Shown here: in pieces, positions 39,696-54,926 of the stretch
How positions within the stretch are numbered: the stretch's first letter is position 1
Layout: every line of letters begins with the position of its first letter
Source: Thermodesulfovibrionia bacterium
Lineage (GTDB): Bacteria > Nitrospirota > Thermodesulfovibrionia > UBA6902
DNA: 64,000 nt
Assembly (NCBI GenBank): GCA_020053105.1
Contig: JAGVNU010000030.1
Location: forward strand, 21,838 to 85,837
Reading direction: 5' to 3'
The notes under the pieces: generated by a model
Seen by the model: the letters and a program-made list of their open reading frames with translations, nothing else
Told to the model about the DNA's origin: nothing
The model's database searches: none
Program-made: the position numbers and the translations under genes

Positions 39696-41054
39696 CTATG
39701 CTTCCAATCCGTATTTTTTCAGTTTTCTCCAGAGCGACACCCTGTCTATGCCGAGTATCTGCGCTGCAAGTGTTTTATTTTCTCCGGCCTCTTTTAATAC
39801 CCACTTTATATAAGACTCTTCCTGCTCCTGAAGAGACGGGATCTTGCCTTCTTTTTTCCTGAAAGTCCTGATGCTCAATTCCCTTAAATCCTCCGGCAGA
39901 TGGACCACCTCGATTGCATTGCCGTTTGAAAGCGCGACACCCCTTTCCATGATATTTTCCAGTTCCCTTACATTGCCCGGGAAATCATAATTCATCAAAA
40001 GGCCTATTACATCCGGAGATATTTCAGAAACGTCCTTTTTCATAAGAGTCGCATACTTTTTTAAAAAATAATAGCTTAAAAAAGGGATATCGTCTTTTCG
40101 CTCCGACAAAGGGGGAATAAACAAAGAGACAACGTTTATCCTGAAATAAAGGTCCTGCCTGAAAAGCCCCTCTTTTATCGCGCCCTGTATGTCCCTGTTG
40201 GTGGCAGCCACGAACCGGACATCGGCTTTTATTGAGGCAGTCCCCCCGAGCCGCAGGAACTCTTTCTCCTGAATCGCCCTTAAAATCTTGACCTGCATGG
40301 AAGGCGGCATCTCCACTATCTCATCAAGGAATAAAGTGCCGCCTGAGGCCATTTCTATCAACCCTTTTTTCATCTCGTTGGCCCCTGTAAACGCACCCTT
40401 TTCATGTCCGAAGAGTTCATTCGACAGAAGCTCCTCAGTAAAAGCGCCGCAGTTGATCGCGAAAAAAGGCCCTTCTGCGCGGCTGCTGTTAAAATGTATA
40501 TACCTTGCCATCAATTCCTTCCCGGTACCGCTCTCCCCCCTCAGCAGGACATTGCAATCCGTAGGCGCTATCTGCCGCGCGGTATCGAGGAGCCTCTGCA
40601 TATTGACATCCTGGGTCACTATCTTGACCTTCCCCTCATATCTCTCCAGTTGCTCCCTTAACTGAGCATTCTCTTTTTTCAGCCTGACTTTTTCAAAGGC
40701 CTCCTTTACTATCTTTCTGACTTCGTCGAGTTTGAAGGGCTTTGTTATGTAGTCATAAGCCCCTTCTTTCATGGCCATAATGGCTGACTGGACCGTTGCA
40801 TAACCGGTCATCATGATCACCTCGGTATCGGGATAGATATTCCGGCATTTCTCGAGTATCTGCGCGCCGTCCACTTTTTCCATCCGCAGATCGGTAAGCA
40901 CAACATCAAATTCCTGATTATCGAGAATCTTTAAAGCATTAGGCCCGCTGTTTGCCCCGACAACCTCATATCCTTCTTTTTTCATGGCGTGCACTAAATT
41001 TCTAAGTGCAATTTTTTCATCTTCTACGATCAGCATTCTTGTCTTGCCGTTCAT
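39696..41054 (-). CDS. Sigma54-dependent response regulator (NtrC family)
   Basis: REC; GESGTGKE, ELFGHEKGAFTGA, FLDEI, PGNVREL; Fis-type HTH. Confidence 0.95.
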   Translation of the reverse strand: MNGKTRMLIVEDEKIALRNLVHAMKKEGYEVVGANSGPNALKILDNQEFDVVLTDLRMEKVDGAQILEKCRNIYPDTEVIMMTGYATVQSAIMAMKEGAYDYITKPFKLDEVRKIVKEAFEKVRLKKENAQLREQLERYEGKVKIVTQDVNMQRLLDTARQIAPTDCNVLLRGESGTGKELMARYIHFNSSRAEGPFFAINCGAFTEELLSNELFGHEKGAFTGANEMKKGLIEMASGGTLFLDEIVEMPPSMQVKILRAIQEKEFLRLGGTASIKADVRFVAATNRDIQGAIKEGLFRQDLYFRINVVSLFIPPLSERKDDIPFLSYYFLKKYATLMKKDVSEISPDVIGLLMNYDFPGNVRELENIMERGVALSNGNAIEVVHLPEDLRELSIRTFRKKEGKIPSLQEQEESYIKWVLKEAGENKTLAAQILGIDRVSLWRKLKKYGLEA

Positions 41055-43075
41055 TTTATCAGCACCATATCAACAATATCTTCGACCCTGTCCACCAGAT
41101 GAATTTCGAGCCCCTTTTTAACATCCGCGGGAAGACCTTCAATATTCACATTGTTCCTCGACGGCAATATCACTGTACTCACCCCTGCCCTGCGCGCAGC
41201 CAGAAGCTTTTCCTTTATCCCTCCGACAGGAAGTATTCTTCCGCTCAGGGTCAATTCGCCTGACACAGCCACATCCCTTTTTGCCGGCCTTCCGGTCAAT
41301 AGCGAGATCAGGGAGATCACGATAGTTGCGCCTGCGGAAGGCCCGTCCTTGGGGATAGCTCCTGCAGGGACATGGACATGGATGTCCTGCAATTCAAAGA
41401 AGTTCTCGTCGATATTAAAAGAAACGGCGTTGCTTCTTATATAGCTCAGTGCGGCCTGCGCGGATTCACGCATGACAGTGCCGAGCGAACCCGTCAAAAT
41501 AAGTTCTCCTTTTCCCTTCATCTTGGCCGCCTCGACAAAAATAATGGCGCCTCCTGTTTCGGTCCATACGAGTCCGGTTGTAACGCCGACGCGGTTCTTC
41601 TCGTCCGCTACTTCAAAGTAATATTTTTTCGATCCAAGATATTTCTCTACAAGCTCAGGCGTTATCCTTAATACCTCTTCACCTTCCTTTGGAAACGAAG
41701 AGGCCCGGGCGGATTTCTGGACATGCTCAGCGGCTATTTTCCTGCACATGGCGGCAATCTGCCTTTCGAGATTTCTTATGCCTGCCTCATGGGTATATTC
41801 CTGAATGATCTTTAATACAGCCCCGGAAGAAAATTCCGGAGGAAACTCCGACAGGCCCTTTTCATGTATCTGTTTTGGAACAATATACCTCATGGCGATA
41901 TTCGCTTTTTCATCTTCCGTGTAACCCGAGAATTCTATTATTTCCATCCGGTCTCTAAGGGCGGCCTGAATATTGTCCGCGACATTTGCCGTTACAATAA
42001 ACATGACACTTGAAAGGTCAAAAGGCACGTCGACATAATGGTCGATGAAATTCAGGTTCTGCTCCGGGTCAAGGACCTCAAGCAAGGCTGACGCAGGGTC
42101 CCCCTTAAAATCCTGTCCCACCTTGTCCAGTTCATCGAGCATAATAACAGGATTGGACGATTCAACCCTGTTGATCTCATCGAGAATGCGCCCGGGCATG
42201 GCGCCTGCGTATGTCCTCCTGTGCCCCCTTATTTCAGCCTCGTCTTTGACACCGCCGAGTGAAATCCTGGCGAATTTCCTTCCAAGCGCATCTGCTATCG
42301 CCCTGCCCAGCGACGTCTTTCCTGTTCCGGGCGGGCCTGCAAAACAGAGCACAGAGCCTTTTGTAGAGCGGGTTGAAAATTTTTTCTCAAGCGCCTTTTT
42401 TACAACCGAACGGACGTCCTCGAGTTTAAACGGTTTTGCAATATAGTGAAAAGCGCCTTTCTTTATCGCATCCACGGCAGTATCTACGGAGGCAAAGCCG
42501 GTGATCATTATGACCTGCGTGTCGGGGTATTTATGTTTTGCCTTTTCCAGGACGTCTGTCCCGCTTATCTTCGGCATCTTGAGGTCGGTGATTACAACGT
42601 CAAAATCAAAATCCTCCAGCCTCTGAAAAGCCTCTTCCCCACTGCCGGCGGTGGCTATTGAATAACCTTCTTTTTTCAGCATATGCTCCAGATTCCGAAC
42701 GACTATGGACTCATCATCAACTATCAGTATCCGGGGGTTTTTGTTGGCCACAAGTATCTTGACAGCCAGATGCTCCAGTATCCTTTCTTTAATGCCCGTC
42801 AATCCGTAATGTCTTTCATCAAGGATCTTCTGCGCCCTGGCAAGGTCCAGATTGTCTTCTGTTTTTTTGTTCCAGGGCAGTCTTGTAAGATAGTCAATAT
42901 AGGCAAGCCCGATTGTATATTCTGCTACTGCGGGACTGATCTTTGACAGCATCTCGAACTCATTGTTGGCCACGAGTTGGACCTTGGGCGGCATTTTGGC
43001 GGCATTGATCTTCTGCCGCAACTCCTCCACGGCTTCAGACTGAATTTTTTCGTCCGATTTTTTGAAGATACCCAT
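41051..43075 (-). CDS. lon: Lon protease lacking the N-domain, with a receiver domain inserted in the AAA+ module
   Basis: LPW..HYGL..KERILEHLAV, then REC (VDDE, TDLKMP, ITG, AKP), then GPPGTGKT, RGHRRTY, LDELDK, PKDGPSAG, GGIKEK. Confidence 0.9.
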   Translation of the reverse strand: MGIFKKSDEKIQSEAVEELRQKINAAKMPPKVQLVANNEFEMLSKISPAVAEYTIGLAYIDYLTRLPWNKKTEDNLDLARAQKILDERHYGLTGIKERILEHLAVKILVANKNPRILIVDDESIVVRNLEHMLKKEGYSIATAGSGEEAFQRLEDFDFDVVITDLKMPKISGTDVLEKAKHKYPDTQVIMITGFASVDTAVDAIKKGAFHYIAKPFKLEDVRSVVKKALEKKFSTRSTKGSVLCFAGPPGTGKTSLGRAIADALGRKFARISLGGVKDEAEIRGHRRTYAGAMPGRILDEINRVESSNPVIMLDELDKVGQDFKGDPASALLEVLDPEQNLNFIDHYVDVPFDLSSVMFIVTANVADNIQAALRDRMEIIEFSGYTEDEKANIAMRYIVPKQIHEKGLSEFPPEFSSGAVLKIIQEYTHEAGIRNLERQIAAMCRKIAAEHVQKSARASSFPKEGEEVLRITPELVEKYLGSKKYYFEVADEKNRVGVTTGLVWTETGGAIIFVEAAKMKGKGELILTGSLGTVMRESAQAALSYIRSNAVSFNIDENFFELQDIHVHVPAGAIPKDGPSAGATIVISLISLLTGRPAKRDVAVSGELTLSGRILPVGGIKEKLLAARRAGVSTVILPSRNNVNIEGLPADVKKGLEIHLVDRVEDIVDMVLIK

Positions 43076-43099
43076 TTCCTAACGATAATAACCCAACCA

Positions 43100-43262
43100 T
43101 GTTGCATAATGCAATCTCCGGCAATTCAGATGCAACGATATTTTTATATGGCCCCGCATTAATACTCAAAGGCCCGATATTAAGAGTTGAAACCCGGTGA
43201 AATATTCACCTCAAATTAGCCGTTTAAGTGCTTCCTATTTTATGGCAGATGCAAAATGCAAC
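43100..43262. promoter_or_regulatory. Candidate enhancer sites GTTGCA-N3-TGCAAC
   Basis: GTTGCATAATGCAAT (43101), ATTCAGATGCAAC (43124), GATGCAAAATGCAAC (43248). Confidence 0.5.
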
Positions 43263-43339
43263 GGTTATCAATATTTCTCCAACTGCCTGTCATCCGAATA
43301 AAACATTTTAAAACAAGGAGATAAATTGTTTTTGTCTTC

Positions 43340-43355
43340 CGGCACGGATATTGAT
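43340..43355 (+). promoter_or_regulatory. Candidate sigma54 promoter (variant -12)
   Basis: CGGCACGGATATTGAT: GG-N10-GA rather than GC. Confidence 0.45.
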
Positions 43356-43411
43356 ATAACCAAATCATCAAAGAAGAAAAAAACTTAAAACAGCAAATAC
43401 CTGGAAAGGAG

Positions 43412-43597
43412 ATGAAAATGATAAAACTTCTAAAAAAATTAGAGGATGTTTATGCAGCAGCCGCTTTCGCAGAAGCAGGCGAACACGAAACAGCAAGAGA
43501 AATCATGAGAGAGGAGAAGAGGACTGAGAAGAGAGATCAGATTACACCCAGGCCGCGCATTCAGTTAAGGGCCTCCGGAAGAGACCGGAAAAATTAA
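43412..43597 (+). CDS. Small protein with AAAFAEAGExETARE motif
   Basis: LEDVYAAAAFAEAGEHETAREIM; same motif opens the next gene. Confidence 0.75.
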   Translation: MKMIKLLKKLEDVYAAAAFAEAGEHETAREIMREEKRTEKRDQITPRPRIQLRASGRDRKN

Positions 43598-43628
43598 ACA
43601 GTAATTTCCTTGCACTCAGGGAGATGAC

Positions 43629-44108
43629 ATGAAAAAGTTGATAAAAAAATTTGAAGATGCGATGTGTGCAGCGGCCTTTGCAGAGGCAGGAGAATTTGAA
43701 ACTGCAAGGGAAATTGCAAAGGGAAGACAGAAGGTGCTGCTTACATTAACAGGAAATGTCTCTGACAGGAAATCATTTAAATATGCGCTTAATATCTGCA
43801 GGCGCATAGGCGCAGGGCTTGAGATCCTGAACATATCAAAGAATGATGAAATGCTTCAGATGTTAAAAGAATTCCAGAATGAACTGAAGAGAGGGGGTGT
43901 CGCGTGCGAGATTTTTCAGGAGAGTGGCTGCATAAAGGAGGCCATCATTCACCACACGGGAAAAAGGGGTGATATCCAGTTTGTGGTCGTTGAATCGTCA
44001 GATGCCTTAAATATTAAATGCAAAAAGGATGACAGAGAGCTTTCAAAAATTTGGGAGGGACTAAAGTGCCCTCTGGTCCTGGTTTCCGGGACGGGGCTTA
44101 AGATTTAA
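43629..44108 (+). CDS. AAAFAEAGE motif plus USP-like domain protein
   Basis: FEDAMCAAAFAEAGEFETAREI then KVLL...KYALNICRRIGAGLEIL...CPLVLV. Confidence 0.7.
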   Translation: MKKLIKKFEDAMCAAAFAEAGEFETAREIAKGRQKVLLTLTGNVSDRKSFKYALNICRRIGAGLEILNISKNDEMLQMLKEFQNELKRGGVACEIFQESGCIKEAIIHHTGKRGDIQFVVVESSDALNIKCKKDDRELSKIWEGLKCPLVLVSGTGLKI

Positions 44109-44139
44109 TAACCAATATTTAATGACCAAGGAGGGAAAT

Positions 44140-44391
44140 ATGTCACACAGCAATGTAAAAAGAAAGCCGGTCGGCAAGATGGTGCTGATGGGCGTAATAT
44201 CAGTGACGCTTTATGCGCTGCTGTTGTTAAAGCAGGATGTTATTAACGAGTATATCGGTCAAGGCGGCATGTATGCGTTCCTGCCGATAATAACGGCATT
44301 CTTATTCTCATTTGTTCACGGCACATTTACGGGCGACTTCTGGACAGTTATGGGTGTAGAGGCCGCAAAGAAGAAGAAGGAGGTAAAATAA
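44140..44391 (+). CDS. Small two-TM membrane protein
   Basis: SD AAGGAGG; FLPIITAFLFSFVHGTFTGDFWTVMG. Confidence 0.75.
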   Translation: MSHSNVKRKPVGKMVLMGVISVTLYALLLLKQDVINEYIGQGGMYAFLPIITAFLFSFVHGTFTGDFWTVMGVEAAKKKKEVK

Positions 44392-44392
44392 C

Positions 44393-45481
44393 ATGCACGA
44401 TATAGCACAAGTAGCGTCAAACTTTATAAATCTTGATATCATGACTATTTCGTACCTGTTTTTTGTCGGGTTTGTCGGAGGTCTCGTAAGCGGGTTCATT
44501 GGTTCAGGAGGAGCATTCGTGCTCACACCGGCCATGATGAGTCTTGGAGTGCCCGGACTTGTTGCAGTGGCAAGCAACATGTGCCACAAATTTCCCAAGG
44601 CACTTATCGGCTCTATCAAGCGGGCAAAATACGGACAGGTTGATGTGAAAATGGGAATTGTTCTCGGCATTTCTGCCGAAGCCGGAGTTCTTTACGGCGC
44701 GCACATTCAGGAGAGCATCAAAAAGTCATTCGGAGAGGCAGGTTCCAATCTTTATGTCAGCGTGGCCTTTGTGGTAATACTTGCTATAGTTGGCGGTTTT
44801 GTATTATATGACGCATGGAAGACCTACAAATCCGGAAATACCAACGAAGAAGAAAAGGTCACCAAGCTTGCGCTCTGGGTCCAATCCATTAACATTCCCG
44901 GCACAATGGTTTATTTCAAATGTCTGAATGCAAAGATTTCAGTTCTCTTCACCATCCCTCTTGGATTTGCAACCGGAATGCTGGCGGCAACAATTGCGGT
45001 AGGCGGGTTCATCGGGGTGCCTGCCATGATTTACGTCCTGGGCGCTCCAAGTCTCCTGGCTTCTGCAACTGAACTGGTAATAGCTTTTGTAATGGGACTC
45101 GGCGGCTCATTTAAATTTGCACTGCACGGACTCGTTGATATCAGGCTGGCCATGATTATCCTTGCAGGCTCTCTCTTCGGCATTCAGCTCGGAGCAATTG
45201 GGACGACTTATGTAAAGCCGTTCATGATTAAGGTTGTCATGGGCACAATTATGGTCATCGTCCTGTTCAGCCGTGGCTTGATGGTGCCTGTTTATCTCTC
45301 GGAGCTGGGCTTAATACAGACCTTGAGTGAAGGCACAGTGAAGATAATGAAAAACACAAGCTTCGGCATAATGATAACCGCATTGCTTTTGGGAGCATTC
45401 ATAGTGCTGCGCGCGATGTGGCAGGGGAAAAAGGCGGAGCAATTGGCAACGCAGGAAGCATACGAGCATGGTAAAATATAG
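44393..45481 (+). CDS. TauE/SafE family sulfite-exporter-like transporter
   Basis: GFIGSGGAFVLTP and IAVGGFIGVP repeats; polytopic. Confidence 0.87.
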   Translation: MHDIAQVASNFINLDIMTISYLFFVGFVGGLVSGFIGSGGAFVLTPAMMSLGVPGLVAVASNMCHKFPKALIGSIKRAKYGQVDVKMGIVLGISAEAGVLYGAHIQESIKKSFGEAGSNLYVSVAFVVILAIVGGFVLYDAWKTYKSGNTNEEEKVTKLALWVQSINIPGTMVYFKCLNAKISVLFTIPLGFATGMLAATIAVGGFIGVPAMIYVLGAPSLLASATELVIAFVMGLGGSFKFALHGLVDIRLAMIILAGSLFGIQLGAIGTTYVKPFMIKVVMGTIMVIVLFSRGLMVPVYLSELGLIQTLSEGTVKIMKNTSFGIMITALLLGAFIVLRAMWQGKKAEQLATQEAYEHGKI

Positions 45482-45483
45482 CA

Positions 45484-46338
45484 ATGGGTTTATACCGTAA
45501 GATACTCGTTGCCTTTGACGGATCAGAATCAAGCGTGAATGCCCTTTTACAGGCATTCACGCTTGCCAATGACGAAAAGTGCTGGATAACCGTCGCTACC
45601 ATAGTCCCGTCGTACGAAGGCGACCTCGATCTTACCGGAGTAAAGGACATTCATGAAACCCTCAGGCACACCGGAGAAGTAATCTCATCCAAAGCAAAGA
45701 CAATTGCAGATAAGGAAAGGGCCCTCATAAAAACAGTGGTTGAAGAAGGACCGCCTTTTGAAAAACTGGTTGAAATTGCGGAAACTGAAAACGCCGGGAT
45801 CATTGTCATGGGCAGACGGGGAATGTCCCGTCTTGAGAGGGCCTTTGTAGGCAGCGTTACGGCGCGCGTCATTGGACACAGCACAAGAGATGTGCTGGTC
45901 GTGCCGGAGCATGCGGCAATCGAATGGAAAAATATCCTTATTACGACTGACGGCTCAAAATACAGTGAGGCAGCCTCGAAGAAGGCGATAGCTTTCGCAA
46001 AGGCATACGGCGGGGAATTAAAGGTCCTTTCTGTGGTGGATGTCCCCCCGGAATTAAATGCAGAATCTCCGGCAACCGTGGAAAAGCTGATTAAAAAGGC
46101 AAAGGGATATGTCGAGGTTGTGAAGAAACTGGCGGAGGAGGCAAATGTAAGGACAGAGACCTTTGTGAGAGAAAGCGAAGCCTATCAGATAATAACCAGT
46201 ATTGCAAGAGAGCAAAATGTGGGGACTGTTGTAATGGGATCACACGGAAGGACCGGCCTGAAAAGACTCCTCATGGGAAGCGTTACCGAGAAGGTCATAG
46301 GACATACACTCTGCCCCGTGCTTGTTGTAAAACCCTGA
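45484..46338 (+). CDS. Tandem universal stress protein
   Basis: Two USP domains (ILVAFDGS...MGRRG...GSVT; ILITTDGS...MGSHG...GSVT). Confidence 0.92.
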   Translation: MGLYRKILVAFDGSESSVNALLQAFTLANDEKCWITVATIVPSYEGDLDLTGVKDIHETLRHTGEVISSKAKTIADKERALIKTVVEEGPPFEKLVEIAETENAGIIVMGRRGMSRLERAFVGSVTARVIGHSTRDVLVVPEHAAIEWKNILITTDGSKYSEAASKKAIAFAKAYGGELKVLSVVDVPPELNAESPATVEKLIKKAKGYVEVVKKLAEEANVRTETFVRESEAYQIITSIAREQNVGTVVMGSHGRTGLKRLLMGSVTEKVIGHTLCPVLVVKP

Positions 46339-46638
46339 CCCGGACTTTTTGACCCGCATATTTTTGTTTTCAATAACATAAAGAAAAGTCTTTTCCTGGA
46401 AGCACAGAAAATTACTGATACGGCAAAGAGGATTGCTTCAAAGAACGGGACATCCATCAAAGTTGAGATACTCGAAGGCCACCCGGCGGAGCAAATCATA
46501 GAGACTGCAAAGAAGTCAGATAATGATTTGATTGTCATGGGAAGCTATGGATGGAGAGGCGTTGACAAGGCAATTATAGGGAGCACTGCTGAGAGGGTTG
46601 TTGTTCATGCATCCTGCCCTATATTGGTTGCCAGGTAA
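46339..46638 (+). pseudogene. 5'-truncated USP fragment
   Basis: Own translation: ...EGHPAEQIIETAKKSDNDLIVMGSYGWRGVDKAIIGSTAERVVVHASCPILVAR*; first USP strand and a start codon are missing. Confidence 0.7.
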
Positions 46639-46790
46639 TATGAAATAAAAGGCCGCAGAACAGCTCTTCGATCAGCAAATGGTCCCCCCCTGGGCACGAC
46701 TCGACGGGACTGTCTGCTTGTTCCAAATTAAACCACACCACACCTGACTCTTTATCAAAAACCAAAAATATTGTATCTTAGAGATTACCA

Positions 46791-48503
46791 TTGAAAAAGA
46801 TGAACTTAAAAATCTGGCATAAGATGATAATCGGTATCTCTATCCCTTCTCTTTTCACCCTGATCGGCGGCATACTGACGTACAGCTATATAAGTGATGT
46901 AAAGATAAGGCATGGTTATGTTCAGATTGCAGATGACTTAAAGGAGCAGGTGCTTGAAATCAGACGAAATGAAAAAAATTTTCTTCTTCACAAAGATGTG
47001 GAATATTACAGATATTTCCAGGATGCAATCTCCGGCCTTAACAAATCAGTCAACGCGATATCTCCGCCGACCGTTGTTGAAATAGGAAAAGATTTGTCCC
47101 TGCTTCGCGGGTCCGTACCGGCATATCTTGGTTTTGCAGATGACCTTTTCGAATATTATCAACAGGAAATCAATGTTGTTGAAAAGGTGCGTGAAGAGGG
47201 CAGAAAACTGGAAGCCTTTGTAGCAACGGGGAAGTACTCAAAGGATCTTACCACAAGCTTTATTCTTAATCTCAGACGTTTTGAAAAAAACTATGTGCTT
47301 TATCGTGATAATGTCTCTTATAACGAGTTGGAAAGCGCGCTTTCGCAAATTAATAATATAACCCCTTTTTGTTTTGACTGTGTTGAATATAAAGAGGCCA
47401 TCCATGACCTCTTTTCTACCTATAAAAAAATGGATGAAAAGGTAAATGATCTGCAGTCTACCGGGAATAAACTTGAAGAAACTACGTATAAAATAGCAAC
47501 CAGTGAAAGACAAAAGGTAAACTCTTTTTTTACTCGTACACAGCAGCATCTGGTCCTGGCCCTCATCTTACTCTGTATCCTGGGCCCGTTTTTTGTGAAT
47601 AAAACTGCAAGTTATATAGTCGCGCCGATTAAAAGACTCGCTGAAATTACAAAAAAAATTTCAGAGGGCGATTTAACACTAAGGGCGCCGCTCAAAGAGC
47701 ATGATGAAACCCATACGCTTGCACTGTCTTTCAATACCATGCTCGACCAATTGCAGTTAACACATGAATCACTGGGACAAAGCCTGGAACTTTTACATGC
47801 AAAACAGATAGAAGTTGAAAAACGCGCATCACTCGGTTTCCTTGTATCGGGTATTACCCATGAGTTGAATAACCCCCTGAACAACATATCCCTGACTGCT
47901 GAGACAATGAGGGAAGATATGGGTGAAATTACCCCTGAAGAGCTTAAAGAATATATCCAGGATATACTTACACAGAGTGAGCGTGCCAAGAATATTATAG
48001 CAGACCTTCTCGAATTTGTAGGTACGCAAAAGACCACAGTTATGGAGAAGATGGATATTGTAAATGTTATAGAAGAAGCAATCAGACTTGTTGCAAATGA
48101 GCTGAAAGTTGCCGGCATAAATTTAAAAACAGACCTCCCTAACAGCCCTTTTTTCGTATATGGAAACCATGGCAAATTAGAAGAAGTCTTCGTTAATATC
48201 ATTATAAATGCAATACACGCAATAAAAAATGAAGGAACACTGACAATAAATGCCAGGCATGATACAGTAACTAACCATATATTCATCCATATCTCTGACA
48301 CAGGGCATGGAATACCTGAGGAACATATAAAAAATATATTTGAACCATTTTTCACGACCAAGGAGGCTGGAGAAGGCACCGGACTCGGTCTGTCAGTCAG
48401 TCAGAGTATTGTACGGGAGCACAAGGGTGAAATTGACGTTGAGAGTGAAGTAGGCAATGGCACTACTTTCACAATTAAACTGCCTTTGTCAGGAATTCGC
48501 TAA
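46791..48503 (+). CDS. Membrane sensor histidine kinase (periplasmic helical repeats, HAMP, HisKA, HATPase)
   Basis: Two TMs, THELNNPL, SDTGHG, FEPFFTTK, GTGLGL; periplasmic PFCFDC. Confidence 0.93.
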   Translation: MKKMNLKIWHKMIIGISIPSLFTLIGGILTYSYISDVKIRHGYVQIADDLKEQVLEIRRNEKNFLLHKDVEYYRYFQDAISGLNKSVNAISPPTVVEIGKDLSLLRGSVPAYLGFADDLFEYYQQEINVVEKVREEGRKLEAFVATGKYSKDLTTSFILNLRRFEKNYVLYRDNVSYNELESALSQINNITPFCFDCVEYKEAIHDLFSTYKKMDEKVNDLQSTGNKLEETTYKIATSERQKVNSFFTRTQQHLVLALILLCILGPFFVNKTASYIVAPIKRLAEITKKISEGDLTLRAPLKEHDETHTLALSFNTMLDQLQLTHESLGQSLELLHAKQIEVEKRASLGFLVSGITHELNNPLNNISLTAETMREDMGEITPEELKEYIQDILTQSERAKNIIADLLEFVGTQKTTVMEKMDIVNVIEEAIRLVANELKVAGINLKTDLPNSPFFVYGNHGKLEEVFVNIIINAIHAIKNEGTLTINARHDTVTNHIFIHISDTGHGIPEEHIKNIFEPFFTTKEAGEGTGLGLSVSQSIVREHKGEIDVESEVGNGTTFTIKLPLSGIR

Positions 48504-48508
48504 CAAAA

Positions 48509-48895
48509 ATGAATAAGACACGCATCATGATTGTCGATGACGAGCCGATCGTAGGGAAAAGACTTAAACGATTGCTTGAAAAAGACGGTTACGAAGTCGA
48601 GATTTTCACAAAGGGCTCGGTTGCGCTTGAAGAATGTGACCGGAAACATTTTGATATTGTCATAACCGACCTCAAAATGGGCGGTGTCGACGGCATGAAG
48701 GTTCTCGAAACTGTAAGGGGGAAAAACCCGGACACAAAGGTAATTATCATCACGGGTTTCCGCAAAATGGAATCATCGAATGAGGCATTCATCAAAGGGG
48801 CGTTCGATTATCTTGTAAAGCCGTTTAAAATTGAAGACCTCAAGCGGATCATCAAAAAAGCGGAATCCGAATTGAAAAATTCCTCCGGGCAGTAA
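48509..48895 (+). CDS. Single-domain response regulator
   Basis: IVDDE, ITDLKM, ITG, VKP. Confidence 0.92.
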   Translation: MNKTRIMIVDDEPIVGKRLKRLLEKDGYEVEIFTKGSVALEECDRKHFDIVITDLKMGGVDGMKVLETVRGKNPDTKVIIITGFRKMESSNEAFIKGAFDYLVKPFKIEDLKRIIKKAESELKNSSGQ

Positions 48896-48941
48896 TGTCC
48901 GATCAAATATCATCCAAAATCTTACAGATATTTTCAAGGCC

Positions 48942-49835
48942 TTACCGGGCTTTTACCACCAGCACGGCGCAATCAGCAAGTCCGATAACTCGTTCGGTTA
49001 CGCTCCCCATGAAGAGTTTCACAAGTCCGGTCCTGCCGTGACTACCGACTACAATGAGGTCTGCCTTGTTCTCTTTTGCCGTTTCGATGATAGCTTCGTA
49101 CGGCCTTCCTGCAAGGATGAATCCTTTGACCCTGACCCCGTTTTCTTCAGCGAGCTTTTTTACGTTCTTAACATTTTTTTCTGCTTCCTGAAATTCCTTA
49201 TCAGAGATGGCCCCTCTTTGCATTTCAGAATGAACGATAGCAAAAGGTGATTCAGCTTCTGAAGGCACAACAGAGATCACGATGAGGTTGGAGTCGCAGC
49301 TTTTTGCAATGCTGATCGCCTCGCTTATCGCCGCGTCACTGTATTTTGAGCCGTCGATTGCTACGATAATATTCCTGAATTCAACTCTCGCCGCCCTTGG
49401 GACTACGAGCACTTTGCAAGGGGCATGTCCTATGACCCTTGCGGTCTCACTACCCATCATAAGCCTCTTGAGACCTTTCCTCCCGCGTCTTCCCATGATT
49501 ATCATCTCGGCCTTGTTTTTCTCTGCCTCTTCAACAATGTATTTATAAGGCTCCTCGCCCTGGTGCACTATTATTTCGCAGTCAACCCCTTCTTTTGAGG
49601 CCCTCTCTTTTACGGCTTCAAGGCGCTGCCTTGCCTCTTTTTCAGCCTTCTCGACAAGCTGCGGGGCCATAATTTCGAATTCGGGATTTGTCTCAACAAC
49701 AGAGACGGCAAGCAGCCTGCTTGAACAGGTCTTTGAAAGATTTATCGCCTCTCTCACGGCGCCTTCACTGAATTCAGAGCCGTCTGTGGATAAAAGCAAC
49801 TTTTCAAGTTTTGCCGCCGGGCAATATTGTGCCAT
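48942..49835 (-). CDS. Tandem universal stress protein
   Basis: Two USP domains; paralog of 45484. Confidence 0.92.
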   Translation of the reverse strand: MAQYCPAAKLEKLLLSTDGSEFSEGAVREAINLSKTCSSRLLAVSVVETNPEFEIMAPQLVEKAEKEARQRLEAVKERASKEGVDCEIIVHQGEEPYKYIVEEAEKNKAEMIIMGRRGRKGLKRLMMGSETARVIGHAPCKVLVVPRAARVEFRNIIVAIDGSKYSDAAISEAISIAKSCDSNLIVISVVPSEAESPFAIVHSEMQRGAISDKEFQEAEKNVKNVKKLAEENGVRVKGFILAGRPYEAIIETAKENKADLIVVGSHGRTGLVKLFMGSVTERVIGLADCAVLVVKAR

Positions 49836-49836
49836 T

Positions 49837-50256
49837 TTAATGACCTCCTGCTGTTAAGATTCCTGATGCTGCAAGCAGAAGTACACAAACCTCCAACAAA
49901 GCTATTATGAGGTAGGTGGTGTCCTTTTTTCTGATAAATATCGGAACTACTCTCAAATAACATGCCATCGTTACTCCCGCAAGCACAGCGACCCCGATGA
50001 AATTAAGCATATCTCCATTATTGAGCAAAGAGGCCCACCCCCACCCCACAGGGGCGCCTGTCTCGTGGATATAGTCGGCGGCGCGCAATTTCCAGAGGCT
50101 CTGCAGCTTATTGAAATCCACCACATTCGGCAGAAGTCCGCTTACATAAATTATAAAAGTTATTACAAGAATACCGAGCCCGGTCCATGCGCCGTTGCCA
50201 AGAAGACCTGCGTACGCCAATTGTTCCTCAGATGCCTTTGGTTTATCATCGTTCAT
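49837..50256 (-). CDS. DUF1634-like membrane protein
   Basis: EEQLAYA, PVGWGW, GDMLNF, LLAASGIL; directly downstream of TauE. Confidence 0.75.
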   Translation of the reverse strand: MNDDKPKASEEQLAYAGLLGNGAWTGLGILVITFIIYVSGLLPNVVDFNKLQSLWKLRAADYIHETGAPVGWGWASLLNNGDMLNFIGVAVLAGVTMACYLRVVPIFIRKKDTTYLIIALLEVCVLLLAASGILTAGGH

Positions 50257-50266
50257 GTTTATCCTC

Positions 50267-51244
50267 CTAATTCCAAATTCCTAGGCCCTTCAACAAGGCC
50301 CTCAAGCCTGACACAAACAGCAGTCCTATTACCATCCATTTAATAACTTTGGGCTTTGCCGTCGCAAGGATTTTTACGCCTATTCTGGAACCAAGCATGA
50401 CTCCAATAACGGAAGGCACTACCATGAGAGGCAGGACCGCTCCTTTGTTAATGAAAACCCATGCAGCAGCAGTATCTGTTATCGAAAGCAGGAATACACT
50501 CGATGCAACGGATACTTTTAAAGGAGCGCCCATAAGGAGATTCAGGACCGGCACATTTGCCCATCCGGCGCCGAGACCGAACATGCCGGCCATAACTCCA
50601 ATTATGATAAACAGGAATAACGCCTGCGGCGTCCTGTGGACATGCCATTCAATGTCTTTTCCAAGCGATTCCTCGCGATATATTCCCATTATCCCCAATG
50701 CGGAGGAAAGCGCGTCAGGCTTCGGCACAATAGGGAAGTCGGATTTTTTTGCAAGAAGCAGAATGAAGACTATCCCTATTATTGTCGCTCCAAGGAGTGT
50801 CTGGACTATATTTGTCGGAAGTGCAAGACCTATCATCGCGCCTCCTATTGCCGCGGCTGATGCGATCAGCGCCATAGGCATTGAGAGCCTGAGGCTTGCA
50901 AGATTTCTCTTGAGAAGTCCTGGTCCGGCTGCCAGCGCTGTGGATAATGCAACCAGCAACCCGGTTGCTCTCACAAAATCGAGATGAAAAGGGAAAAATC
51001 CGCTGACAATAGGGACATAAAGAACTCCGCCGCCTACGCCGCCGAGCACGGCCACAATTCCAAGAACAAATGTAAACACAAACAAAGCTAACGGCCAGAC
51101 CCACCATGCAACATCGGAAGTTGGTTCCTGAGAAAGTGTTAAAGCTTCTGTAGATGCAAACGCGGTGGCAACTCCCAGGATTAAAGTTAAAAATACCATT
51201 ACTGCTACGAAAGTCTTTAAAATTTTGAGTGTACCTGGCAACAT
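50267..51244 (-). CDS. TauE/SafE family transporter
   Basis: LGGVGGGVLYVP, FGLGAGWANVP; start ATG 51244 after AAGGAAGGA. Confidence 0.87.
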   Translation of the reverse strand: MLPGTLKILKTFVAVMVFLTLILGVATAFASTEALTLSQEPTSDVAWWVWPLALFVFTFVLGIVAVLGGVGGGVLYVPIVSGFFPFHLDFVRATGLLVALSTALAAGPGLLKRNLASLRLSMPMALIASAAAIGGAMIGLALPTNIVQTLLGATIIGIVFILLLAKKSDFPIVPKPDALSSALGIMGIYREESLGKDIEWHVHRTPQALFLFIIIGVMAGMFGLGAGWANVPVLNLLMGAPLKVSVASSVFLLSITDTAAAWVFINKGAVLPLMVVPSVIGVMLGSRIGVKILATAKPKVIKWMVIGLLFVSGLRALLKGLGIWN

Positions 51245-51319
51245 TAATTTGTCCTTCCTTATTATGAGATTTGATTTATTGCAAATACTGTTATCGGGTA
51301 TCGAGAGCAAGACATCATT

Positions 51320-51355
51320 GTTTCAAATTGCATCAGAGCCTGCTTATTTTGCAAC
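51320..51355. promoter_or_regulatory. Pair of candidate enhancer sites similar to those at 43.1-43.3 kb
   Basis: GTTTCAAATTGCATC and TGCTTATTTTGCAAC. Confidence 0.4.
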
Positions 51356-51589
51356 AAACCGGTTTATATCATAATGAACTGAGCTGGATAAAATCAATAA
51401 AAATGAGTTTATAATTATATAAGATTTTTATTAAGGACGGGAGCCGCGTAGAGAACGACAGGTGCGGACTACGGGAAGTTCTATAACAGAAAACACTATT
51501 TTACAATAAATTCACACTGTTCTCTTATGATATGGACCAAACAAAAGTCATCGGAGGAACACACTAGTTAAATCAAAATTAGGCGCCTA

Positions 51590-51670
51590 TTAACTGGTGG
51601 CCATAACAGCAACAAGAGCAATCAACAACGAAAAGAAAAATACAAAACCCAATGCCTTGAGAAATTTCAC
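51590..51670 (-). CDS. 26-aa single-TM small protein
   Basis: AAAGGAGG-N6-GTG; MKFLKALGFVFFFSLLIALVAVMATS*. Confidence 0.5.
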   Translation of the reverse strand: MKFLKALGFVFFFSLLIALVAVMATS

Positions 51671-51891
51671 GTCAAGCCTCCTTTCTTCTTTATGCCAAAA
51701 ATATATTTTCATGACTGGAGGAATTCATTACCAGCTCTCGCTGCATCGGCAAGAAAGCCTCCGGGTTTAAAGCTGTATGGGATAATTATGGACCTCCGCT
51801 ATGACCTTGTCTACTAAAAAAGATTAATGCGTACATAAGCTGTCTTGATTCGGCCCGTGGAATTACAACGGGGAAAATATCTGATGAGGAG

Positions 51892-53040
51892 TTACAGTTT
51901 GACTATATCGAGGATATCTCTGAGGGGACCTGGGATATTTTCAGCGCTGCCGGCCGTCACAATGAATATGACCTTTGAGAGATCATACGGCACATCCACA
52001 TAACGATCGGTGAAATTGCGGTTCTTATGGGGAGCGATCACCTCCATCAGGACAGATGAGATGTCACCCCTGAAATCCCGGGATGCCGCGTCCAGCCCCT
52101 CAAGCATAAAAACAGGATCAGCGGCGCCTGCACGACGGATCTCATCGATAATACATCCGGGGCTTGCATCGTCAGCTGCCCGGTCCAGCCCTCTGACGTC
52201 AGACTCCTCTTTTATTTCTGACAGCGAAATGCTGATGAATTTTCTGCCAAGGGCTGCGGCAATCATTTTAGCAACAGAGATCTGCACTTCTAGCGACGGC
52301 CCCTCAAAGCAAAGGACGTCCCGCTTCCAGTTCAAATACTTATGTCTGAGAGCGTCTTTAACAGATGAGAGTAAGTCATCGACCCTGACAGGCTTTTCAA
52401 TGTAGTGAAACGCCCCCATCCTTAACGCCTGCACTGCGGTGTCCACAGTTGCATAACCCGTAATCATAATGACCCGCGTTCCAGGATACTTGTTGATGGT
52501 TTCTTTAATAATAGCCGTCCCGTCAACTTCTCCCATAATCAGGTCCGTAATCACCAGATCAATATCAGAAGCCTTCAGCTTATCAATGGCTTCTGTCCCG
52601 CTGCCGGCCGTTACAACTGTATAGCCCTCTCTTTCAAGGATGTACGTTAAACTCTCAAGGGCGATCCGTTCATCATCCACGACCAGAATCTTGGGTTTTT
52701 TATAGTTATTTGCAAACTTGCCGTTCAGATGCTCCAGTATCCTCTGCCTGCTGCCGCTGTCAAGCACATGCTCATTCAATATTTTTTCAACGCCCGAAAG
52801 CTCAGGCTTTTTTTCTGAGGCCTTATTCCATGGCAGGCTGGCAAGATAACCGACATAGGCTAATGCGTTTAAATGTTTGGAGGTCCCGGGACTGACGATT
52901 GACAGCGCTTCCATCGCCTGCTTGGCAGTGTCAGCTAACTTCTGTACATCAGACGGCATCCCGGCAGATGCGAGCATTTGCCTCAGCTCCTGTATTGACA
53001 GAGAGCGAAGTCTTTTATTAAATTCTTGGAACCCTTTCAA
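51892..53040 (-). CDS. Degenerate Lon-REC paralog (intact receiver, broken Walker A/B, no protease domain)
   Basis: LPW..RILEHL, REC (VDDE, TDLIM, ITG, EKP), CFEGPSLEVQIS, MLEGLD, FTDRYVDVPYDLSKVIFIVTA, ends at PLRDILDIVKL. Confidence 0.8.
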   Translation of the reverse strand: MKGFQEFNKRLRSLSIQELRQMLASAGMPSDVQKLADTAKQAMEALSIVSPGTSKHLNALAYVGYLASLPWNKASEKKPELSGVEKILNEHVLDSGSRQRILEHLNGKFANNYKKPKILVVDDERIALESLTYILEREGYTVVTAGSGTEAIDKLKASDIDLVITDLIMGEVDGTAIIKETINKYPGTRVIMITGYATVDTAVQALRMGAFHYIEKPVRVDDLLSSVKDALRHKYLNWKRDVLCFEGPSLEVQISVAKMIAAALGRKFISISLSEIKEESDVRGLDRAADDASPGCIIDEIRRAGAADPVFMLEGLDAASRDFRGDISSVLMEVIAPHKNRNFTDRYVDVPYDLSKVIFIVTAGSAENIPGPLRDILDIVKL

Positions 53041-53216
53041 AGATTGTCCCTGACTGCATAAGTATTTGTGGTTTGCTCAACTTCTTTAAATTGGATGTAA
53101 GTATACCAGTTTGTTTACGGCAAGTAAAATCTGCGGATTTTATATCATTTACTTTTTCCGCATCCTGTTATTTAACAATACCGTTAAAATATTGTATCCT
53201 AACATACGCAAAACAT

Positions 53217-54926
53217 ATGAAATTAAAAATCTGGCATAAAATGATCATCGGGATAACAATCCCTTCCCTGATTGCCGTGTTAGGAGGCATCCTGACCTAC
53301 GGCTATATGAACGATATAAAAAACAGGCAGGGTTCCATGCGTATCGCGGACGGATTAAAGGAGAACGCTCTCGAAATCAGAAGAAATGAAAGAAATTTTC
53401 TTCATTACAGGGACGTTGAGCATCAAAAAAGACTCCTCGATGCCATAAATACATTGACCCGGTCAGTCAATAATATCTCTCCCAATGCGTCTGAAAAAAT
53501 CGCGAGGCGCGGATTCCCCCTTCTCAGCGAAACACAGGAACAATATGCGGACCTTACAAATAAGCTGAATGAGAATTTCCTGAAAGAGGCTGAGATCGCA
53601 GGAAGGGTAAGAAAGGAGGGCGAAAAGCTGGAGACCCTTGTAGCGGCGCGGAAACAGGCAAAAGAACTCTCTACAGACTTTGTCCTCCGCCTGAGACTGC
53701 TGGAAAAGAATTACATGTTTTATCGTGACAAAGAATCTTATTCAGATCTGGACAAGAGTCTTTTACAGATAAAGAATATTACCCCTTTCTGTTATGGATG
53801 TACCCCTTATATCGACTCTGTCCGAGAGCTTTTTACGGCCTATAAAATTAGTGGTTCCCTGACAGACAGTCTTCAGGCAGCAGGCGATACGCTGGAGCAA
53901 ATAACAGAAGAAATAGCGGAACGTGAAAGACAGAGGATCAGCTCCTTCATCGACCATACGCAAAACCTCCTGCTGGCGGCCCTCTTACTGCTTTTTTCTT
54001 TGGGTCCTCTATTCGTATACAAGACCGCTTCTTCAATAGTGAAGCCGATTAACAGGCTTGCTGAAATTACGAGGAAGATTTCCGGGGGGGAAATCACCCT
54101 GAGGGCGCCGCTTAAAGAGCATGATGAGACCTACTCTCTTGCTGTGTCCTTCAACAGCATGCTCGATAATCTCCAGAAGACCCAGCAGTCCCTGAAGGAA
54201 AGCCTGGGCCTCCTTAATGAAAAGCAGGCCCAGCTTGTGGAATCTGAGAAACGCGCCTCAATGGGTTTTCTTGTGGCCGGTGTTGCGCATGAGCTGAATA
54301 ATCCACTGAATAATATTTCTCTCCGTGCTGAGATAGTCAGTAAAGAGATACAGAAATATTCCGACGAAAAACTCAGCAATTACGTGCAGGACATAGTGAT
54401 GCAGAGCGAACGCGCCCATAACATAATCAATAATTTACTCGACTTCGCAAGGGCCCGCAAATCTGCAGAAATGGAAAAACAGGACATAGTCCGCATTGTA
54501 AATGATTCCTTGAATCTTGTGGCCAGCCAGCTCAGAATCACCAATATTAAACTGAACAAGGACATCCCGGACAGGGCTTTCTACGTCAATGGGAACCGCA
54601 GCAAGCTGGAACAGATACTCATCAGCATCATAACCAATGCCATTCAGGCGATGAAGGATTCCGGCACATTGACCGTAGGGGTCGGGCAGGACAATATCAA
54701 CCGGAATGTCCTTGTGAAAATCAGCGATACCGGGAAGGGGATACCTGAGAGTGACATTAAGAACATCTTTGACCCTTTCTTTACAACAAAACCCCCTGGC
54801 GAAGGCACCGGTCTCGGACTGGCAGTCAGTCAGACCCTTGTGACGGAACATAAAGGTGAAATTCTTGTTGCAAGTAAAGTCGGGAGCGGGACTACATTCA
54901 CTATAAAATTACCGCTGTGTAAATAG
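53217..54926 (+). CDS. Membrane sensor histidine kinase, paralog of 46791
   Basis: [12 protein letters not shown] start shared with paralog; [16 protein letters not shown]; periplasmic PFCYGC. Confidence 0.93.

Follow-up and report, generated by a model that had tools for sequence, protein, structure and literature searches.

A receiver-bearing Lon protease locus of a Thermodesulfovibrionia bacterium as a probable elaboration of the Desulfovibrio DVU3303-3305 signalling module

Genes of the locus and their conservation

The 64,000-nucleotide stretch of DNA analysed here (hereafter the window; contig JAGVNU010000030.1 of a Thermodesulfovibrionia bacterium) carries a gene cluster around Lon-REC, a Lon-type protease into which a two-component receiver domain (REC) is inserted. 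Neighbouring genes encode the response regulator RR54 with a sigma-54 activator domain, the histidine kinases HK1 and HK2, a stand-alone receiver (RRsolo), a truncated, receiver-bearing Lon paralogue (pseudo-Lon), and two sets of TauE/SafE-family transporters, small membrane proteins and universal stress proteins (USPs), all of which are listed in Table 1. The region had originally been predicted to be a phosphorylation-gated Lon proteolysis circuit tied to sulfur-oxyanion transporters, and every gene named in that original prediction was recovered in its place by open reading frame (ORF) listing and Pfam scans. The core of the locus is a three-component system of the DVU3303-3305 type, which has already been described in Desulfovibrio vulgaris. 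On the basis of our results, the whole region is probably a lineage-specific elaboration of this conserved signalling module, the wiring of which we infer.

Table 1. Genes and predicted regulatory elements of the Lon-REC locus, with positions in the window (aa, amino acids; nt, nucleotides; PWM, position weight matrix score; UAS, upstream activator sequence).
Feature	Positions	Strand or placement	Basis
RR54: REC, Sigma54_activat and HTH_8	39696-41054	-	Pfam (Sigma54_activat 228 bits, Response_reg 100 bits); GAFTGA loop in translation
Lon-REC, 674 aa: REC, AAA, Lon_lid and Lon_C	41051-43075	-	Pfam
Candidate activator palindrome UAS1, GTTGCATAATGCAA	43099-43117	about 25 nt 5' of Lon-REC start codon	PWM 22.6
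Candidate activator palindrome UAS2, GATGCAAAATGCAACGG	43247-43264	about 90 nt 5' of -24 element	PWM 17.3
Sigma-54-type promoter (predicted), CGGCACG-N4-TTGAT	43337-43360	+	PWM 19.8
Small AEAGE protein (AEAGE59), 59 aa, gene 1 of sigma-54 operon (operon 1)	43418-43597	+	sequence reading
AEAGE159, 159 aa: AEAGE motif, then divergent USP-like domain	43629-44108	+	sequence reading
mem89, 89-aa small membrane protein, in every case immediately 5' of TauE1	44122-44391	+	
TauE1, TauE/SafE-family transporter	44393-45481	+	Pfam PF01925, 121.1 bits
USP1, tandem universal stress protein	45484-46338	+	Pfam Usp, two stretches
USP C-terminal remnant without start codon	46339-46638	+	in frame after USP1 TGA stop
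HK1: transmembrane segment, periplasmic domain of about 215 aa with CxxC, transmembrane segment, HAMP, HisKA and HATPase	46800-48503 (alternative start 46791)	+	Pfam
RRsolo, stand-alone receiver, 128 aa	48509-48895	+	Pfam; begins 5 nt past HK1 stop
USP2, tandem USP, final gene of TauE2 operon	48942-49835	-	Pfam
mem139, 139-aa membrane protein, TauE2 partner	49837-50256	-	
TauE2, TauE/SafE transporter	50267-51244	-	Pfam, 117.1 bits
TauE2 control region	51318-51397	-	promoter-like element, then candidate UAS site
Pseudo-Lon ('dead Lon'), 382 aa: 3-helix bundle, REC and partial AAA	51892-53040	-	Pfam
HK2 sensor kinase, divergent from pseudo-Lon	53217-54926	+	Pfam

In D. vulgaris, the excerpts of Rajeev 2011 (PMC3333781) describe DVU3305 as a sigma-54 regulator, DVU3304 as a kinase and DVU3303 as a regulator 'containing a lon protease', and term the three together a three-component general-stress system, whose targets are its own operon and DVU3302-3298, a set of membrane, hypothetical and USP proteins. 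According to the same excerpts, the genes are induced at high pH, under heat and in stationary phase, orthologues occur in Thermodesulfovibrio, Thioalkalivibrio and Dechloromonas, and it is suggested that the Lon of DVU3303 needs phosphorylation for its activity. The same DVU3305 regulon is listed in the relevant part of Kazakov 2015 (PMC4641369). According to the corresponding portions of Trotter 2023 (PMC10102598), the pairwise cofitness of DVU3303-3305 exceeds 0.9, strains that have lost these genes do better in 6.25 mM chlorate, and chlorate is also a condition under which the anion transporter DVU3299 is important. The original prediction had pointed to comparable loci in Desulfovibrio, and this was correct: they correspond to DVU3303-3305 with the target DVU3302-3298, as far as the excerpts of PMC3333781 go.

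The window resembles this system in that a receiver-bearing Lon stands beside a sigma-54 response regulator, and operon 1, like DVU3302-3298, is divergent from them and combines membrane, hypothetical and USP genes with a putative anion transporter and a conserved regulator site. RR54 is the putative counterpart of DVU3305, and TauE1 is likely that of DVU3299. Loci labelled Desulfovibrionaceae were used as stand-ins for the D. vulgaris Hildenborough proteins; five loci labelled Desulfovibrionaceae or Desulfovibrio (L107, L110, L115, L119 and L124) contain Lon-REC at 46-49% identity together with RR54, and mem89-TauE1 occurs in three of them. Unlike in DVU3303-3305, the genes of Lon and the regulator are not separated by a kinase gene in the window; a kinase of the HK1/2 type, whose CxxC-bearing sensor is of another kind, follows the USP gene instead. 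Additional components are HK2, pseudo-Lon, the lone receiver and a further TauE operon, unrelated to the first, with one regulator site. What is new here compared with the Desulfovibrio module is the displaced CxxC-sensor kinase and, as the most interesting element, the pseudo-Lon/HK2 pair.

To characterize the distribution of the module, residues 1-260 of Lon-REC were used as a query against 401 species genomes sampled from the phylum, 64 of which gave full-length Lon-REC matches. We then collected 39 Nitrospirota Lon-REC loci with 10 kb on either side, which were picked non-randomly from the ranked list and some of which were clipped by contig ends, added one pseudo-Lon locus, and searched them with the window proteins by tblastn. 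A kinase was found in at least 33 of the 39 Lon-REC loci, TauE1 in 32, RR54 and AEAGE159 in 31 each, USP1 in 29, mem89 in 27 and the small AEAGE protein in 26, and the full set (RR54, kinase, AEAGE159, mem89, TauE1 and USP1 within 10 kb) was present in 24. The RR54 orthologues beside Lon-REC share 66-81% identity with that of the window. Usually, RR54, kinase and Lon-REC follow each other in this order on one strand, with the small AEAGE protein, AEAGE159, mem89, TauE1 and USP in the divergent direction. A scan of species genomes yielded 54 Lon-REC loci, which share few contigs with the 39-locus set and 38 of which are labelled outside Nitrospirota (Desulfobacterota lineages, Acidobacteriota and Pseudomonadota). 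Among these 38 loci, RR54 was identified in 34 and mem89 together with TauE1 in 25, and an AEAGE motif was seen in the first divergent gene of seven, of Desulfobacterota type; over all 54 loci, mem89 was found in 36. For TauE1, identity was 72-86% within Nitrospirota and 56-66% in the loci of other phyla. Neighbourhood conservation had been proposed as a check on the original prediction, and the components indeed co-occur across genomes and phyla, as the full set in 24 of the 39 loci and RR54 in 34 of the 38 illustrate.

It should be noted that in many Nitrospirota loci (L039, L043, L047, L052, L055, L058, L061-L063 and L065) the region 3' of the TauE1-USP operon carries a second kinase and a second sigma-54 regulator, which shares 45-48% identity with RR54; in some cases a further AEAGE/TauE/USP set comes next. 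Thus, the module tends to occur in tandem paralogous copies.

Receiver-bearing Lon proteins and their kinases

Lon-REC is collinear with LonA (6u5z and 4ypn) over the 3-helix bundle, the AAA+ module, the lid and the S16 protease domain with its Ser-Lys dyad. In the alignment with Escherichia coli (Ec) Lon (6u5z), residues 16-108 correspond to Ec 251-343 and residues 237-672 to Ec 346-771. The receiver, of 128 residues (approximately 109-236), is thus accommodated between Ec 343 and 346, that is, where the 3-helix-bundle/alpha-0 region meets the Walker A strand. Because the alignment begins at Ec residue 251, the N-terminal LON substrate-binding domain of about 250 residues that LonA possesses is absent, and no Pfam match to PF02190 was obtained in Lon-REC. 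The motifs GPPGTGKT, MLDELD, DGPSAG and GGIKEK are all present, and Walker A/B, Ser580 and Lys623 are invariant among 26 aligned family members. On this basis, Lon-REC may be described as a LonA that has lost the N-terminal LON domain but looks active. Its score against the TIGR00763 'lon' model (743.6) exceeds the cut-off of 608, which is why public records label it simply 'endopeptidase La'. The AlphaFold2 (AF2) monomer model was only moderate (predicted local distance difference test (pLDDT) 73.6, predicted template modelling score (pTM) 0.51), and domain packing was not read from it.

Several relatives of Lon-REC depart from this architecture. In one genome (G209; L065, C12) the Lon-REC frame holds two in-frame TGA codons, and in another (G322; L054, C3) the open frame has only 302 aa, with the remainder matching separately; these split frames suggest occasional decay or sequencing frameshifts. 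Two of the best representatives retrieved for Lon-REC, P0217 (997 aa) and P0218 (889 aa), are Lons with two tandem 3-helix-bundle and AAA+ modules before a single protease domain and no receiver. In a further relative, P0222 (568 aa), the sequence stops partway through the protease region and has an AEAGE-type motif, TFAEAGEFDTAR, at its end; possible origins are run-through of the gene call, a deletion that joined Lon-REC with the adjacent small AEAGE gene, and an artefact of assembly.

Pseudo-Lon had been predicted to be a dead Lon. Its ATPase motifs are indeed dead, with GPSLEVQIS in place of the P-loop, MLEGLD at Walker B and Ile at the Arg finger position, but the protein is not of full length: it is truncated after the AAA alpha/beta subdomain and has neither lid nor protease domain. 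A protein search yielded about 47 short clusters of 348-424 aa with 44-82% identity, after one short sequence (P0100) that looks like a cut full Lon had been set aside. All 47 aligned members share an end position at the end of the AAA alpha/beta subdomain; the receiver pocket is retained in 46-47 of them, an intact P-loop in two, the Walker B Glu in three and the Arg finger in none. Comparison of three orthologues, the pairs of which are not independent, gave ratios of non-synonymous to synonymous substitution rates (dN/dS) of 0.07-0.11 for the receiver, 0.22-0.24 for the dead AAA core and 0.35-0.44 for the N-terminal helices. The AF2 model of pseudo-Lon shows a confident fold (pLDDT 87.7), and its best match in the Protein Data Bank (PDB) is 4ypn, a LonA fragment of 3-helix bundle and AAA alpha/beta subdomain (template modelling score 0.86 on the target). 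Pseudo-Lon is 47% identical to Lon-REC and has its receiver at the same insertion point, and it derives from Lon-REC rather than from a canonical Lon.

A metagenome scan for pseudo-Lon contexts returned 80 loci, two of the short type and the remainder mostly with full-length Lon-REC. In all three contexts with flanks (the window, L033 and L163), the three loci on which the gene context of pseudo-Lon rests, the gene is divergently adjacent to an HK2 orthologue, and the HK2 orthologues of L033 and L163 show 87-89% identity. Since the receiver pocket is kept, the end point is shared, dN/dS is low and HK2 is a constant neighbour, we conclude that pseudo-Lon is no gene in decay but a conserved pseudo-enzyme of the response-regulator type with a kinase of its own.

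The original prediction had also pointed to four similar receivers and to two paralogous kinases, and both points were borne out. The receivers of RR54, Lon-REC, pseudo-Lon and RRsolo show 37-55% pairwise identity and all keep the DD/D/T/K phospho-acceptor pocket, while the full-length identity of HK1 and HK2 is 54%. The most similar receivers are those of Lon-REC and RR54 (55% identity), both of which contain the alpha-1 motif RNLxH; this motif differs in pseudo-Lon (LESLTYIL) and in RRsolo receivers. Because the Lon-REC and RR54 receivers are so similar and have the same alpha-1 motif, it is plausible that one kinase serves both the transcription and the proteolysis branches.

As for the kinases themselves, most of the 39 loci have one between Lon-REC and RR54 or beside them, whereas none lies between the two genes in the window. 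HK1 is a non-orthologous kinase located 3.7 kb away, after USP1, and the same order with a single HK1/2-type kinase was found in L123. The canonical operon kinase of most loci aligns with no more than roughly 72% of HK1 (identity about 31%) and hence has a different sensor; a search of the window's own genome (83% complete) revealed no orthologue of that sensor. Judging from these comparisons, an HK1/2-type kinase has evidently replaced the usual operon kinase. The periplasmic sensor of HK1 had no family match (Pfam to an E value of 5, and NCBIfam), and the canonical kinase sensor likewise had none, but a periplasmic CxxC stands at the identical position in seven of seven HK1/2-type kinases. 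The pairing of a histidine kinase with a lone response regulator, as in HK1-RRsolo, recurs in L031 and L033.

Promoters and predicted activator sites

Operon 1 is preceded by an element at 43337-43360 that is best read as a sigma-54 promoter with a non-canonical -12 (TTGA instead of TTGC). An element of the form TGGCA[CT]G-N4-TTG[TA][AT] was found in 24 of 25 aligned orthologous Lon|AEAGE intergenic regions, and when the promoter PWM was run over both strands of the 64 kb, the runner-up scored 13.4. The gene rpoN is present in the window's genome. A strict search for TGGCAC-N5-TTGC with one mismatch returned nothing in any intergenic region of the locus, with matches in the window at chance level, and a GG-N10-GC scan also missed the element at 43337-43360; both scans missed it because its -12 is non-canonical.

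The shared upstream palindromes noted in the original prediction are real, with two before operon 1 and one before TauE2. Their consensus is TGTTGCATTTTACAACAT, and a UAS PWM built from 42 orthologous sites found only these three in the 64 kb (43099-43117, 43247-43264 and 51318-51335), everything else scoring 11 or less. UAS1 lies about 24 nt from the Lon start codon in many loci, and the position of UAS2 relative to the promoter is conserved as well. The spacing of the pair is typically about 87 nt in relatives and 147 nt in the window. UAS-type sites were also found 5' of Lon-REC in 29 of the 38 non-Nitrospirota loci. A generic inverted-repeat search of the sequence gave nothing useful. We regard the UAS palindromes as predicted sites of the RR54 activator. 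An extra half-site, GATGCAACG, is located at 43129-43137 between the two palindromes of operon 1.

Two TauE operons, each with a tandem USP and a small membrane partner, had been described in the original prediction and are present, but the TauE pair are not paralogous duplicates. Both proteins exceed the Pfam gathering score of 32.6 bits by far (Table 1), yet TauE1 and TauE2 lack BLASTP similarity to each other (E = 1.9), so that the two operons did not arise by duplication and the transporters belong to different subfamilies. The partner mem139 adjoins TauE2 in all eight TauE2-bearing Nitrospirota loci, and its only match, to DUF1634, is non-significant (E = 0.62). No sigma-54 promoter was found before TauE2. 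Its control region consists of a sigma-70-like element, TTGATT-18-TATGAT (51397-51368), followed by GTTGCAAAATAAGC and then by the UAS-type site GATGCAATTTGAAACAA (51335-51318; PWM 20.2), 91 nt 5' of TauE2, and this layout also occurs in L040 and L049. Thus, operon 1, with its sigma-54-type promoter, and TauE2, with its sigma-70-like promoter and candidate site, appear to be wired differently.

Proposed wiring and competing explanations

The following wiring is proposed for the region. A membrane kinase of the HK1/HK2 type would sense an extracytoplasmic cue through its helical periplasmic CxxC domain, and one kinase would phosphorylate both RR54 and Lon-REC. Phosphorylated RR54 would switch on operon 1, autoregulate the Lon-RR54 operon through UAS1, 25 nt from the Lon start, and modulate TauE2-mem139-USP2 through the single palindrome after the sigma-70-like promoter, probably by repression. 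In the NtrB/NtrC system, the same activator sites serve the sigma-54 promoter glnAp2 from a distance and overlap the sigma-70 promoters glnAp1 and glnL, which results in repression. The location of UAS1 near the Lon start and of the palindrome after the TauE2 promoter resembles this use of NtrC sites, and the repression we suggest is read from these positions. Phosphorylation of its receiver may also switch the ring assembly or ATPase of Lon-REC, so that proteolysis would be coupled to the same signal as transcription. In activators of the NtrC1/DctD type, the receiver is directly N-terminal to a ring-forming AAA+ domain, and phosphorylation lifts the inhibition of ring assembly that the receiver imposes. 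Lon-REC is likened to these REC-AAA+ proteins by analogy, although their output is sigma-54 remodelling and that of Lon-REC would be proteolysis.

HK2 would pair with pseudo-Lon and HK1 with the lone receiver, and pseudo-Lon and RRsolo may be phosphorylation-dependent modulators of Lon-REC or of phosphate flow, acting as poison subunit, adaptor or phosphate sink; this is the least certain step of the proposal. CpdR, a single-domain receiver, is an adaptor of ClpXP. RssB, a receiver protein with a degenerate enzyme domain, is likewise a ClpXP adaptor, according to the consulted part of PMC7226468. Both may be considered functional analogues of pseudo-Lon and the lone receiver, as they couple phosphorylation state to an AAA+ protease, but their homology to pseudo-Lon is confined to the receiver, whereas the degenerate domain of pseudo-Lon comes from the protease's own AAA+ core. 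A complex prediction of Lon-REC residues 1-470 with pseudo-Lon, run without controls, gave a score of 0.23 (mark 0.32).

The two halves of this proposal differ in strength. Comparative evidence, together with the binding data from Desulfovibrio, gives the transcriptional half good support, whereas the phospho-gating of Lon-REC proteolysis is inferred from architecture and cofitness. Several observations weigh against the proposal. In the transcriptional half, the -12 of the operon 1 promoter is non-canonical (TTGA/TTGT) and the locus has no strict-consensus site; the sigma-70-like element of TauE2 is a weak consensus match, matches in this region being no more frequent than in shuffled sequence, and a UAS-like site 90-120 nt 5' of TauE2 was present in only four of 11 regions, including L123. 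The chlorate phenotypes of D. vulgaris are opposed, with loss of the signalling genes helping and loss of the transporter hurting, which does not fit a simple activator-of-transporter wiring; they suggest net negative control or a second promoter and are compatible with Lon-REC acting negatively on the operon products or with dual promoter control. Kinases were assigned to receivers by adjacency and similarity, and homology and proximity are what connect pseudo-Lon with Lon-REC. Furthermore, pseudo-Lon was found in only two of the 401 species genomes, the window's own (G000) and that of a congener (G350), and our literature search returned only Desulfovibrio work and no report of phosphotransfer to a Lon receiver or of phospho-dependent proteolysis for any family member.

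Three other explanations of the locus were weighed. The reading that it is a dedicated sulfur-oxyanion circuit, in which a periplasmic sulfite, thiosulfate, polysulfide or redox signal turns on two sulfite-type exporters together with proteolysis while the dead Lon and the lone receiver act as brakes, seems to us doubtful. Its link to sulfur oxyanions is suggested by the Pfam TauE/SafE family name, which both transporters match, and by the taxa, as sulfate-reducing lineages (Thermodesulfovibrionales-type Nitrospirota and Desulfobacterota) commonly carry the module. However, TauE/DUF81 is a broad family in which a Pfam match gives no substrate, the two transporters are unrelated and differently wired, and the module also occurs in loci labelled Acidobacteriota and Pseudomonadota. 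A periplasmic sulfur or redox signal could be read from the CxxC conserved in the uncharacterised sensor domain of the HK1/2-type kinases, but most family members use another kinase sensor, and the CxxC sensor is therefore not system-defining. The DVU3299 phenotype does concern an oxyanion; as far as the excerpts of PMC10102598 go, however, sensitivity to that oxyanion, chlorate, is the sole published phenotype of this transporter. Moreover, the conditions that induce the D. vulgaris system in the excerpts of PMC3333781 are those of general stress.

With regard to pseudo-Lon, it is rather unlikely that HK2 and pseudo-Lon form an independent two-component pair, whose output binds another partner, such as the housekeeping LonA or another AAA+ protein, and which lies near Lon-REC through common descent only, uncoupled from it in function. 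In L163 the pair stands without Lon-REC, RR54 or TauE genes across 8.3 kb, in G350 it is on a separate contig from Lon-REC, the alpha-1 of the pseudo-Lon receiver is unlike that of Lon-REC and RR54, and a canonical Lon of 796 aa is encoded in the window's genome. On the other hand, both genomes with pseudo-Lon (G000 and G350) also carry Lon-REC, HK2 is paralogous (54% identity) to HK1, itself part of the Lon-REC locus, and it is Lon-REC that pseudo-Lon resembles in sequence and insertion point. That the truncated Lon is instead a decaying pseudogene left by duplication, in a locus of neighbouring two-component systems without joint function, is very improbable and already disfavoured. The loss of Walker A, Walker B, Arg finger, lid and protease domains would agree with it, and the USP remnant at 46339-46638 shows that deletions have occurred in the locus; but the 47 short homologues share an end position and a preserved receiver pocket, dN/dS is low in the receiver and in the dead AAA core, the predicted fold is confident, and the surrounding module co-occurs across phyla. 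Thus, an elaborated DVU3303-3305-type module is the reading we prefer for the region.

Within that reading, it is conceivable, although we consider it unlikely, that the pseudo-Lon regulators of about 380 aa represent a new family of protease modulators that descend from the protease itself, are switched through phosphorylation by HK2, and join Lon-REC rings or dock as adaptors. If so, a poison subunit would kill two ATP sites and one protease site per Lon-REC ring, the extent of the signal-dependent proteolysis triggered by the first sensory input would be set by a second one, and a principle like that of RssB and CpdR would apply to Lon.

Lon proteolysis is normally regulated through substrates and adaptors, and a Lon motor bearing a two-component receiver would constitute a direct link from kinase to protease. 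Our literature search found no biochemical study of a receiver-bearing Lon, fifteen years after the first mention of such a protein. The window offers several handles on the question, namely a mapped set of promoters and operators, a natural kinase swap with a CxxC sensor, and a conserved dead paralogue that could show how a receiver-bearing Lon is tuned. Sulfate reducers and other anaerobes carry the module widely, and it influences how well Desulfovibrio tolerates chlorate, a proposed souring-control agent, so that the substrates and the transporter of the module are of practical interest.

Some further features of the region should be mentioned. The RR54 gene overlaps the Lon-REC stop by 4 nt, and the TauE2-mem139-USP2 operon (51244-48942, minus strand) is convergent with HK1-RRsolo. 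Orthologue starts and ribosome-binding sites indicate that HK2 most likely starts at 53217 and TauE2 at 51244. AEAGE59 and AEAGE159 have the motif AAAFAEAGExETAREI in common; neither these two proteins nor mem89 and mem139 matched any Pfam (E up to 5) or NCBIfam family, and the atlas neighbours of AEAGE159 are hypothetical or USP-like clusters of about 150-160 aa from Nitrospirota and Thermodesulfobacteriota. USP1 and USP2 are 41% identical. The USP remnant, of about 99 codons without ATG, GTG or TTG, matches USP genes of related loci by tblastn at no more than 54% identity and is probably the leftover of a further USP gene after a deletion. We also considered whether a 12-kb block from TerC to pseudo-Lon might be an insertion; TerC is near pseudo-Lon in L163, but a 769-aa gene intervenes there, and the idea was dropped. 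Finally, an ORF of 26 codons, MKFLKALGFVFFFSLLIALVAVMATS, with a GGAGG ribosome-binding site is located at 51594-51674 on the minus strand, between pseudo-Lon and the TauE2 promoter region, and its product resembles a single hydrophobic helix.

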